From contig CAMTVD010000016.1 in NCBI GenBank assembly GCA_947085095.1, positions 1 to 64,000 on the forward strand: a stretch of 64,000 nucleotides of DNA. Direction: 5' to 3'. The position numbers and the translations under genes are program-made. This stretch comes from an uncultured Thermus sp. Lineage in GTDB: Bacteria > Deinococcota > Deinococci > Deinococcales > Thermaceae. The notes under the pieces are model-generated. The model saw nothing but the letters and a program-made list of their open reading frames with translations. It ran no database searches and was not told the DNA's origin. Shown here one piece after another: positions 42,414-45,370 of the stretch. How positions within the stretch are numbered: the stretch's first letter is position 1; every line of letters starts with the position of its first letter.

Positions 42414-43451
42414 ATGGCAGGACTGGAAGCTTACGATTACCACCTTCCCCCGGAGCTCATCGCCCAAGAGGGGGTGGAGCCCCGGGACCTGGCCCGCATG
42501 ATGGTGGTCTATAGGGAAGGTCCCTTCCGGGTGGAGCACAAGAGGGTGCGGGACCTCCCGGAGTTCCTGCGCCCCGGGGACGTGCTGGTCTTCAACGAGA
42601 GCAAGGTGATCCCCGCCCGCCTCCTGGCCAGGAAGCCCACGGGGGGCAGGGTGGAGGTCCTCTTGGTGCGGGAGAGGGAGCCCGGCCTCTGGGAGGCCCT
42701 CCTGGGCCCTGCCAGGAAGGCTCCCGTGGGCACGGAGCTTTCCTTCCTTTCCCCCAAGGACCTGGAGCCGGTCCCCGGCTTGAAGGCGAAGGTGGTGGGG
42801 GTGGAGGAGGACGGGGTGCGCCTCCTCCGCTTCCAGGGGGACCTGGTGGGCCACCTGGAGGAGGTGGGGGAGGTGCCCCTTCCCCCCTACATCAAGGCCC
42901 AGATTCCCCTGGAGCGCTACCAGACGGTCTACGCCAAGCGGCCGGGCTCCGTGGCCGCCCCCACGGCCGGCCTCCACTTCACCCCGGAGCTTTTGGAAAG
43001 GCTTCGGGCTATGGGGGTGGAGCTTCACTTCCTCACCCTCCACGTGGGCCCCGGTACCTTCCGCCCGGTGAAGGGGGACCCCGGGAAGCACGAGATGCAC
43101 GCCGAGCCCTACGAGATCCCCGAGGCCACCGCCTGGGCGGTGAACCGGGCCAAGGGGGAGGGGAGGCGGGTCATCGCTGTGGGCACCACGGTGGTGCGGG
43201 CCCTGGAGAGCGCCTACCGGGAAGGGGAGGGGGTGGTGCCGGGGGTGGGGGAGACCCGGCTCTTCATCCGCCCCCCCTACGTCTTCAAGGCCATAGACGC
43301 CCTCTTCACCAACTTCCACCTCCCCCGCTCCACCCTCCTCATGCTGGTGGCCGCCTTCCTGGGGAACGAGCGCACCATGGCGGCCTACCGCCTGGCGGTG
43401 GCCGAGCGCTACCGCTTCTATTCCCTGGGCGATGCCATGCTGATTCTTTGA
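42414..43451 (+). CDS. queA: SAM:tRNA ribosyltransferase-isomerase
   Basis: LPPELIAQ, PLPPYI, AAPTAGLHF, TNFHLPRS, FYSLGDAM. Confidence 0.97.
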   Translation: MAGLEAYDYHLPPELIAQEGVEPRDLARMMVVYREGPFRVEHKRVRDLPEFLRPGDVLVFNESKVIPARLLARKPTGGRVEVLLVREREPGLWEALLGPARKAPVGTELSFLSPKDLEPVPGLKAKVVGVEEDGVRLLRFQGDLVGHLEEVGEVPLPPYIKAQIPLERYQTVYAKRPGSVAAPTAGLHFTPELLERLRAMGVELHFLTLHVGPGTFRPVKGDPGKHEMHAEPYEIPEATAWAVNRAKGEGRRVIAVGTTVVRALESAYREGEGVVPGVGETRLFIRPPYVFKAIDALFTNFHLPRSTLLMLVAAFLGNERTMAAYRLAVAERYRFYSLGDAMLIL

Positions 43452-43813
43452 AGAAAGGCCAGGGCTTTCTCCTTGGGAAGGAGGGTGGGCTCCCGCTCCG
43501 GGGCGAACCAGGCGAGGAGGGCGGCCAGGTCCTCCTCCGGGGTGTAATCTTTGGGGGCCAGGAGGACCTTGTGGTCTCCGTCCAGGAGCTGGAGAAGGCC
43601 CACCACCTCCCCTTCCGCCTCGCCCAGGGGGTGCGGGGGGCCCAGGAGGACGGCGTCCACCTCCTCCCCGTCCGCGGGGTTCAGGAGGCCGGGGAGGAGG
43701 CCGTAGTTCACCGGGGCGGGCCGCTCCTCCCTCACGGGGAAGAGCCGCCCTTCTTTCCAGGCGTGCCGAAGGGGGCTTCCCTTGGTCCACTCCACGATCA
43801 TCTTGAGGCGCAT
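43418..43813 (-). CDS. short family I inorganic pyrophosphatase-like protein (131 aa)
   Basis: PVNYGLLP, DGEEVDAVLL, DHKVL. Confidence 0.75.
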   Translation of the reverse strand: MRLKMIVEWTKGSPLRHAWKEGRLFPVREERPAPVNYGLLPGLLNPADGEEVDAVLLGPPHPLGEAEGEVVGLLQLLDGDHKVLLAPKDYTPEEDLAALLAWFAPEREPTLLPKEKALAFLQRISMASPRE

Positions 43814-43815
43814 GG

Positions 43816-45162
43816 CTAGAGGCCCAGGATCAGGCGGGCCACGCTCAGGTAGATGAGGAGGCCGATCACATCGGAGAGGGTGGCGATGAGGGGGTTGGAG
43901 ACCAGGGCCGGGTCCACGCCGAGCCGCCTGAGGACCATGGGGAGCGTGGAGCCCACCAGGTTGGCGAAAAGGACCAGGAGGAAAAGGGACAGGCCCACCA
44001 CTGGGATGAGGGGGCCATAGCCGTCCAGCCCCACCTTGATGAGGAGGACGGAGGCCAGGGTGAGGCCTAAAAGGCTTCCCACCACGGTTTCCTTGAGGAG
44101 GACCCGCCGCCAGTCCCTGAGGTCCAGGTCCCGGGTGGCCAGGGCCCGGATGATGAGAGTGGCGGACTGGTTGCCCGTGTTTCCCCCGGTGCCTATGAGG
44201 ACGGGCACGTAAAAGGCCAGGGCGGTCACCGCTTCCAAGACGCTCTCAAACCCCTGGAGGATGGAACTCGTCACCATTCCCGTGAGGATCAGGATGATGA
44301 GCCAGCGCACCCGGGCGAGCCAAAGCCCCACCGGGGAGGCCTGGCTGTAGACCAGGTCGGGCACGTCCACGGCGGCCAGCTTGTGGATGTCCTCGGTGGC
44401 CTCCTCTTCCAGGACGTCCAGGACGTCGTCCACGGTGACGATGCCCACCAGGCGGCCTTCCTCGTCCACCACGGGGAGCACGGTGAAGTCGTAGTCGGCC
44501 ATGAGGCGGGCCACCTCTTCCTGGTCCGTGTCCGTGCGCACGTGGACCACCTTGGGGTTCATGATCTCCGCCACCTTGGTCCTGGGGTCAGCCACGATCA
44601 GGTCGCGCAAGGACAGCACCCCTTGGAGGCGCTCCTCTTCGTCCACCACGTACAGGTAGTAGATGGTCTCGGCATCGGGGGCGGCCCGGCGCAGGAAGCG
44701 GAGCACCTCGTCCACGGTCATGGTGGCCCGCACCGCCACGTACTCCGGGGTCATGAGGCCACCGGCCTCGTCCTCCTCGTACTGGGTGAGTTCCTCCACC
44801 TCGGCCCGGGTCTTTGGGTCCAGGGCCTCCTTGAGCCTTTTGGCCAGGGCCTCGTCCTCCTCCTCCACCGCCTGCAGGGCATCGGCCAGGTCGTCCAGGG
44901 AGAGCTCGGTGAGGAGTTCCTGCACCCGCCAGGGGGGGAGGGTCTTCAGGTACTCCGCCTGCTCCTCGGGGGCGAGGTTGGCGAAGACCTCCGCCGCTTT
45001 CTCCTTGGAGAGGAGGGTGAGGAGGACGTAGCGGTGCTCCCCGTTGAGGTCATCCCAAAGGAGGAGGAGGTCCTGGGGATGGGTCTCCTCCAAAAGGCGC
45101 TTGAGGGCCAGGGTGTCGCCCTCTTCCAGAGCTTGGAGAAGGGGGGAAAGGGTTTTCTCCAC
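43816..45162 (-). CDS. mgtE: magnesium transporter MgtE
   Basis: N domain, CBS pair (AGGLMTPEY), GTGGNTGNQS, DPALVSNPLIATLSD. Confidence 0.97.
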   Translation of the reverse strand: MEKTLSPLLQALEEGDTLALKRLLEETHPQDLLLLWDDLNGEHRYVLLTLLSKEKAAEVFANLAPEEQAEYLKTLPPWRVQELLTELSLDDLADALQAVEEEDEALAKRLKEALDPKTRAEVEELTQYEEDEAGGLMTPEYVAVRATMTVDEVLRFLRRAAPDAETIYYLYVVDEEERLQGVLSLRDLIVADPRTKVAEIMNPKVVHVRTDTDQEEVARLMADYDFTVLPVVDEEGRLVGIVTVDDVLDVLEEEATEDIHKLAAVDVPDLVYSQASPVGLWLARVRWLIILILTGMVTSSILQGFESVLEAVTALAFYVPVLIGTGGNTGNQSATLIIRALATRDLDLRDWRRVLLKETVVGSLLGLTLASVLLIKVGLDGYGPLIPVVGLSLFLLVLFANLVGSTLPMVLRRLGVDPALVSNPLIATLSDVIGLLIYLSVARLILGL

Positions 45163-45204
45163 GGGCGGCCTCCTTTCTGGCCGAAGGCCGCCCGAAGGCG
45201 GCCT

Positions 45205-45240
45205 TCAGGGCCTGGGACTCGAGGGCAGAGCCTCCGACAT
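45205..45240 (-). CDS. candidate mgtE leader peptide MSEALPSSPRP
   Basis: ATG 9 nt downstream of the -10 box; 3 Pro codons in the last 6; stop overlaps an attenuator-like hairpin. Confidence 0.55.
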   Translation of the reverse strand: MSEALPSSPRP

Positions 45241-45249
45241 ACGCTTTCT

Positions 45250-45278
45250 AGCCTATAGGGAGGGGGTTTCTCCGTCAA
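45250..45278 (-). promoter_or_regulatory. sigma-A promoter of mgtE
   Basis: TTGACG-N17-TAGGCT on the minus strand. Confidence 0.8.
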
Positions 45279-45370
45279 CCTGGCCCACTAGAAATGTGCG
45301 AAAAATTGCGGTTGACACGCTCAAGGGGTCTGCCCTATCCTGGAGCCCGGCCTTTGGGGCCAGGAGGGGC

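Follow-up and report, generated by a model that had tools for sequence, protein, structure and literature searches.

A short upstream open reading frame with a fixed AGU codon and two alternative RNA helices suggest a ribosome-operated switch of mgtE translation in Thermus

The mgtE gene of a Thermus genome is preceded by a leader of about 80 nt, in which the stop codon of a short upstream open reading frame (uORF) overlaps one of two alternative RNA helices, the other helix containing the mgtE Shine-Dalgarno sequence (SD). We confirmed that this element is real, strongly conserved and beyond chance. The reading we favor is a ribosome-operated translational attenuator for Mg2+ uptake with sensing at a core around an AGU codon, the uORF presumably being translated and Mg2+ presumably being the input; we put its probability as a whole at about 0.5. 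A translated switch operated by ribosomes is very probable. Given such a switch, Mg2+ would probably be the input, and given both, the core with its AGU codon would likely be the sensing site. The MgtE/SLC41 family has its structural model in the MgtE of this genus. In the literature on mgtE we found no account of expression control for MgtE of this genus, and neither a Thermus mgtE leader nor an AGU-based Mg2+ sensor; an earlier remark on the serine of CorL, the corA leader peptide, is possible in Gall 2016 or Kriner and Groisman 2015.

The mgtE gene lies on the minus strand of the window (the whole stretch of 64,000 nt that was analysed) at 43816..45162, with a GTG start at 45162. Its product, a Mg2+ channel of 448 aa, was recognised by TIGR00400 (410 bits), by the Pfam domains MgtE_N, CBS and MgtE, and by its match to PDB entry 2yvx (E 7e-229). 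CorA was found in none of the 32 genus genomes searched and MgtA gave no match over the cut-off in this genome (93% complete), which leaves MgtE as the recognised importer on which control would act. An ORF of 131 aa on the minus strand (43418-43813) begins 2 nt past the mgtE stop and is probably co-transcribed with mgtE; its match to PF00719 (inorganic pyrophosphatase) is weak (E 0.00085, below the cut-off). The genome carries efp (EF-P), rho and a tRNA with GCT anticodon.

All elements of the leader are also on the minus strand. The mgtE promoter consists of a -35 hexamer TTGACG (45273..45278) and, after a spacer of 17 nt, a -10 hexamer TAGGCT of the TANNNT type (45250..45255). Transcription is predicted to start at about 45243-45242, 2-3 nt before the AUG of the uORF. 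The near-leaderless uORF (45205..45240) has 11 codons (MSEALPSSPRP*) and contains the core CCC TCG AGT (Pro-Ser-Ser, 45217..45225), with the AGU codon at 45219-45217. Its stop overlaps segment 1 (45197..45206), the anti-anti-SD, which is separated by a UUCG loop, seen in the window sequence, from segment 2 (45183..45192), the anti-SD. Segment 2 can pair either with segment 1 or with segment 3 (45173-45163; 45163..45174 when the whole mgtE SD AGGAGG, 45174-45169, is included). A further stretch, GCCCUCG at 45220..45226 ("segment 0"), is a weak extra partner of segment 1 or the SD in untranslated RNA. Promoter, uORF, segments 1-3 and the mgtE GTG are all found where the first-pass annotation had placed them.

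The mgtE promoter failed a strict scan with the E. coli consensus, and the promoter call rests on conservation. The -35 hexamer reads TTGAC[AG] in 32/32 genus genomes, and the arrangement TTGAC[AG]-N17/18-TANNNT is likewise found in all 32. The distance from the -10 box to the ATG is 9-10 nt in 31/31 genus leaders; genome-wide, the gap between TANNNT and ATG has its peak at 6-7 and a shoulder at 8-10. RNA runs yielded only low-share contigs from relatives; two metatranscriptome contigs end at 45230-45232, with loose ends, and positions 45258-45350 were uncovered. These ends are compatible with the predicted start but are not evidence for it. The ffh gene is divergent from mgtE in the window, and its promoter (TTGACA-18-TATCCT at 45312-45341, plus strand) lies in a region conserved through the Thermaceae and family f3.

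MgtE is present in all 32 genomes of the genus, and the leaders of all 32 were examined. An intact uORF, opened by an ATG 9-10 nt past the -10 box, is found in 31/32; in the exception (L002) the ATG, the stop and segment 2 were all lost together. Length variants of the uORF differ by +3, +6 and +27 nt, all multiples of three (3/3 kinds) that preserve the frame. The uORF conservation on which the first-pass annotation had made its proposal depend is borne out. The stop codon is TGA, with TAG in one lineage. While the promoter spacer of 17-18 nt has no invariant column (mean 0.54, 29 genomes), the CCC TCG AGT core is essentially fixed. Both helices are intact in 31/32 genomes. Helix 1:2 has 10/10 bp in 30 of these 31 leaders and helix 2:3 in 29; both are complete in 29. 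The covariation evidence in the genus rests on one lineage, L030, whose segments carry compensatory, both-sided changes in helix 1:2 (three pairs) and in helix 2:3 (one pair), affecting all three segments; the stem covariation that had been called for thus exists, but in a single lineage. With so little variation in the segments, and with the L030 row shifted out of register by MAFFT, automated covariation counts were set aside and L030 was checked in hand register.

To judge uniqueness, 1130 SD-led genes of the genome were taken as null and scored for two helices of 10 bp or more, an anti-SD helix and, upstream, an anti-anti-SD helix. An anti-SD helix of this length occurs in 24/1130, and mgtE alone has the upstream competitor as well. 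None of 3000 shuffles of the leader reproduced both helices. Two features of the window did not survive the comparison within the genus. The UUCG tetraloop is conserved in only 1/31 leaders and was rejected as a functional feature. The distance from the uORF stop to the mgtE start is 40-43 nt across the genus, and uORF and mgtE share a frame here; since this frame is kept in only 24/31, read-through or fusion of uORF and mgtE was also rejected.

A search of the leader against 4227 Rfam families, including the mgtA leader, gave no match at E<=5, and nine related leaders gave none either. The M-box riboswitch (RF00380), which also is a structured 5' leader of mgtE, was not matched in any of 61 relatives by a covariance-model search in which the control matched in 2/14; this agrees with the earlier statement that no M-box is visible. 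No terminator-like site was found on the minus strand.

Folding of the naked RNA at 37 °C placed segment 2 onto the SD, the folds with 1:2 and with 2:3 being near-equal in energy. We then placed a ribosome footprint on each codon of 31 genus leaders and calculated the median energy needed to open the SD at 65 °C. Free Thermus RNA required 3.6 kcal/mol and is thus predicted to be only partly open. With the A site anywhere from five codons before the AGU to one codon after it (AGU-5 to AGU+1) the median was 2.2-3.2 kcal/mol; it rose to 4.1 at AGU+2, 7.6 at AGU+3 and 8.0 at the stop. The switch point fell between AGU+1 and AGU+3 for all 3' footprint edges from +10 to +16. In these predictions the SD is closed by a footprint at the last codon or the stop, and is far more accessible with the ribosome at AGU+1 or earlier. 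The switch logic holds: a ribosome at the stop would mask segment 1, allow 2:3 to form and turn mgtE OFF, as had been proposed, and as the suggested folding with ribosome masking predicts. The place of the stall fits the earlier proposal less well. It had named as sensor the three Pro within the last six codons, and with the ribosome at the last Pro, segment 1 is already masked (7.6 kcal/mol). As the SD is closed from AGU+3 on, a stall at the last Pro is predicted to be OFF.

The codons of the core differ from the later Pro codons in their conservation. Among the 24 distinct uORFs of the genus the core is near-fixed, with AGT in 24/24, CCC two codons upstream in 24/24 and TCG in 23/24. The middle Pro, after AGT, is kept in 21/24 and the last Pro in 16/24, so the Pro-codon conservation that had been expected applies to CCC and not to the later two. 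The last Pro is variable and a ribosome on it would cover segment 1, and the uORFs of the Meiothermus type described below have no Pro run; as it was stated, the Pro run as sensor is therefore unsupported. Third codon positions in the core never vary; in mgtE, by comparison, 6/6 invariant Pro columns show synonymous variation. AGT accounts for 224/13338 Ser codons (1.7%) in 706 long ORFs of the genome and is the fourth-rarest codon counted; TCG-AGT makes up 1/602 Ser-Ser pairs. In folded free RNA, the A and G of the AGU are mostly unpaired (pairing 0.05 and 0.15), and CCCUC is weakly paired, to the SD or to segment 1. The Pro codon may therefore be held by structure, and the AGU probably is not. 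Segment 0 forms 6-7 of 7 pairs with the region of the stop and segment 1 in 27/28 rows, with a pairing probability of 0.6-0.8 and mixed partners. A conserved hairpin over the AGU (GGCUC:GAGUC) was considered and rejected, having 5/5 pairs in only 16/28 rows when AGT is present in all 28. A rare Arg codon, CGA, often adjoins or shortly follows AGT in other leaders (L042, L045, L047, L051, L057, L058, L100 and leaders of the Meiothermus type).

The favored reading would work as follows. Transcription would start 2-3 nt ahead of the uORF AUG. When Mg2+ is sufficient, ribosomes would pass the Pro-Ser-Ser(AGU) core and arrive at the stop, where they would cover segment 1, so that 2:3 pairs and the mgtE SD is hidden (OFF). 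At low Mg2+ the ribosome would not get past the core; it would either drop off there or pause, the rare, wobble-read AGU then lying near the A site. Segment 1 would then be free, 1:2 would form and the SD would open (ON). A Thermus ribosome paused over the core would mask the weak segment 0 as well, resulting in the most open state. The codon AGU is read by tRNA-Ser(GCU) via a G-U wobble. We infer that wobble decoding is more Mg2+-sensitive and that AGU decoding, or drop-off at this codon, is the sensing step. The switch is most likely Mg2+-responsive.

MgtE was found in 68/68 genomes of other genera of the family, and 32/36 leaders have an SD-led uORF (for example MEDHSSSRRF.. and MEDSSSSRQ..). 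The call of these uORFs demanded an in-frame AGT; independently of this rule, 33/36 show the start context GGAGG..CC-GTG-GA, and 32 of these 33 have an early AGT. These Meiothermus-type uORFs predominantly start with M-E-D, and most have no Pro in the first 9 codons. Segment 2 is predicted to have two alternative partners here, the mgtE SD and the SD and start of the uORF itself, the latter in the place of the anti-anti-SD. The helix with the uORF start region outscores 95 or more of 100 shuffles in 31/33 distinct leaders, and the two pairing sites overlap in 30. A ribosome on codons 2-8, which include the AGU, is predicted to be OFF (7.7-9.2 versus 4.3 kcal/mol for the free RNA, medians of 35 leaders), which speaks against a pure stall as the mechanism common to both types. 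According to these models, only drop-off or loss of loading would give ON in both the Thermus and the Meiothermus type. In L117 (g5) the helices are retained although the uORF is frameshifted. A uORF call in L159 was left out, as it overlaps the divergent ffh gene. Several mgtE orthologues have a short leader without a uORF (L111, L112, L142, L151-L155, L157-L161), an indication that the switch has been lost repeatedly.

In the rest of the phylum such uORFs are patchy, with 2/12 in f3, 5/6 in f5, 1/36 fetched (of 52) in f4 and 0/6 in f2. Four f5 leaders share a DPEPLS(AGT) core; folding of these four revealed no clean switch and no common logic. Within the genus, three genomes carry a second mgtE copy, 33-34% identical: L343 (G029), L344 (G005) and L345 (G019). 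All three copies have their own promoter and an SD-led uORF with an early in-frame AGT, reading MEGPSR.., MREEGPQS.. and MREESPRS... G019 is also the genome with the degenerate primary leader L002.

For distant mgtE genes outside the Deinococcota, 71/74 loci were read, three being left out because the upstream DNA was short. The rule, fixed after reading this first set, required an SD, a start, D/E at codon 2, a length of 6-45 codons and AGT within 10 codons. It was matched before mgtE at 16/71 loci, as compared to 0/39 neighbouring genes; a second control set gave 2/39, and shuffles of the 71 loci gave a mean of 0.56 and a maximum of 3. AGT made up 22/28 early Ser codons of these uORFs, compared to 181/1715 (about 11%) in the mgtE genes themselves. 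The matches include Bacillota, Thermodesulfobacteriota and Halopseudomonas. A held-out metagenome set (71/80 mgtE loci, nine fragments left out) scored at 10/71, with a shuffle mean of 0.6 and a maximum of 4. Here AGT was 15/21 early Ser codons, with 15 in frame versus 2 out of frame. Several of the matches are kin, which lowers the number of independent ones to about 14 different peptide heads, as counted by eye. In both sets the in-frame AGT stands at varying distances from the uORF start. Folding of 20 distant AGT leaders revealed no common switch logic. Before corA of Bacillota (12 Thermaceae loci and four Gammaproteobacteria being left out of the corA count), 2/27 M[D/E]..AGT matches were not above the 2/39 of the control. 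In the genome studied here the AGT-uORF signature precedes 1/1127 genes.

The closest known peptide is CorL. In E. coli, Salmonella, Citrobacter and Klebsiella (4/4, closely related) CorL/YsgD starts TTG GAC ACA CCC AGT AGA, which gives M-D-T-P-S(AGU)-R. The available parts of PMC11552253 and PMC5314796 describe a short uORF before a Mg2+ importer, as in Thermus, whose efficient translation represses the importer; according to the former, which makes no mention of serine in these parts, Mg2+ regulates E. coli corA by way of its leader and corL, Kriner and Groisman 2015 reportedly note conservation of the N-terminus of CorL, and how CorL senses Mg2+ with one Pro and few acidic residues is uncertain. 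CorL and the Thermus core have P..S(AGU)..R in common. The uORF of the second-copy leader L343, M-E-G-P-S(AGU)-R, is a near-full match, and L080 is likewise; the Thermus peptide lacks the Asp at position 2 of CorL (M-D-x-P-S(AGU)-R). The platforms differ: CorL acts by Rho-dependent termination in a long leader, Thermus would act by a helix over the SD, with a near-leaderless uORF in a leader of about 80 nt. The likeness, seen in the sequences, may reflect homology or convergence.

In its output the Thermus leader resembles MgtQ of Salmonella mgtB, for which the accessible text of PMC8092293 describes a uORF and alternative stem-loops that hide or free the transporter ribosome binding site (RBS), acting on translation only. 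Exclusive helices, one over the RBS and one overlapping the uORF, were found in Thermus as well; Asp/Glu at positions 2 and 5 were not. MgtQ requires Asp2/Glu5, and acidic residues are optional in Thermus uORFs. As far as the same text goes, MgtQ also differs in being intergenic and SD-led, in that loss of its start codon turns the gene OFF (free Thermus RNA is predicted to be partly open), and in its layout, to be set against the Thermus uORF stop that overlaps the anti-anti-SD; its conserved CCC Pro codon matters for pairing. MgtL of E. coli and Salmonella mgtA shares with the Thermus proposal a ribosome that senses Mg2+ on a Pro-containing leader, with full translation turning the gene OFF. 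Thermus has such a short uORF before a Mg2+ importer but not the N-terminal acidic/Pro motif (EPDP), and MgtL precedes a P-type ATPase, has no Ser and acts by Rho-dependent termination; the anatomy of the Thermus leader points to SD occlusion. The first-pass annotation had seen MgtL-like logic acting on translation initiation. The folding and the exclusive helices agree with this; the peptide does not, as the EPDP-type motif is absent and CorL is closer. Since CorL shares the AGU start region and MgtL has no Ser, the peptide looks CorL-like and the output, translation initiation, MgtQ-like. The element works like MgtL, CorL and MgtQ, yet fails the motif tests for MgtL and MgtQ. Leaderless polycysteine sORFs of mycobacteria, as outlined in the available text of bioRxiv 10.1101/834739, also free a downstream RBS by a stalled ribosome; they sense cysteine via Cys runs and carry no Mg2+-importer signal. 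The "mgtE motif" riboswitch candidate is a structured mgtE 5' leader with SD and AUG in a stem, reported from Thioalkalivibrio only and with no uORF mentioned in the part of PMC11109978 at hand.

Four other explanations have to be weighed against sensing at the AGU. Pro could be the sensor, as in MgtL, where Pro and acidic residues matter (PMC11552253, available part): low Mg2+ would slow Pro decoding or peptide bond formation at the invariant CCC, and the AGU would be incidental. The 24/24 conservation of CCC, compared to the synonymously varying Pro columns of mgtE, would fit, as would the predicted ON state for a stall at CCC, the presence of EF-P, and the frequent Pro 1-3 codons before AGT in other leaders. 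We nevertheless consider this unlikely, as most Meiothermus-type uORFs lack an early Pro, Pro-Pro occurs in only 1/31 uORFs, the two later Pro vary and the last one cannot give ON; CCC-UC pairs with the SD or segment 1, and the choice of AGU is left unexplained. Sensing at initiation, or through 70S stability, is hardly more probable. At low Mg2+ ribosome loading would fall, whether on the near-leaderless AUG or at the RBS of a Meiothermus uORF, fewer ribosomes would reach the OFF position, and the AGU would merely be a fixed slow codon that sets the dwell time. Ribosome loss is the one state with relative ON in both architectures, L117 retains the RBS helix without the frame, and low Mg2+ increases the abortion of translation by D/E-rich motifs at the N-terminus (bioRxiv 10.1101/2021.02.02.429294, as far as available), in line with the M-E-D starts of the Meiothermus type. 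However, 16/31 Thermus uORFs have no acidic residue, MSEALP containing one Glu, and any rare codon could serve as timer, yet it is AGU across phyla (22/28 and 15/21 versus about 11%).

A real switch might also read another signal, such as charging or modification of Ser-tRNA(GCU) or general translation stress. Tandem Ser codons (SS, SSS) resemble amino-acid attenuators, and leaderless poly-Cys uORFs control downstream SDs in this way (bioRxiv 10.1101/834739, available text). This is improbable, since the signature tracks genes for Mg2+ importers (mgtE and its distant paralogue, and corA) and a single Ser is all that many leaders contain; serine starvation of B. subtilis affects AGU and AGC least among the Ser codons (PMC3862929, available part). 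Quite improbable is a switch of RNA only, in which folding would respond to Mg2+ or temperature, or a protein would bind, and the ORF would be an accident of a conserved RNA motif. Such a switch would account for the invariant third positions of the core and the similar energies of the two folds. It would not account for the conserved AUG and stop, the indels in multiples of three or the in-frame AGT at varying start distances, and the AGU is unpaired and the Rfam search gave no match.

The AGU codon is the most informative feature, as it links the Thermus leader to CorL and to many mgtE leaders. A class of Mg2+-sensing leader peptides across phyla that includes CorL, with one wobble-read AGU Ser codon as sensor, is a tentative extension that we regard as possible but doubtful. 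At low Mg2+ the ribosome would pause and abort at the AGU, acting through different platforms: SD occlusion in Thermus, uORF-RBS pairing in Meiothermus and Rho termination at E. coli corA. If true, a synonymous codon would sense a metal ion in bacteria of different phyla, and a thermostable switch of translation, 80 nt long, would be available as a minimal model; the shared codon makes the sensing question of CorL a one-base matter (AGU to AGC). Some leaders carry features of MgtL: the f5 leaders L163-L166 have a conserved ADPEPLS(AGT) core, which is an MgtL-like D/E/P motif plus the AGU codon, and L330, 121 nt upstream of a Bacillota corA (G738), has an SD-led uORF MDTVPLPRFK.. that resembles MgtL (MEPDPTPLPR..) and not CorL.
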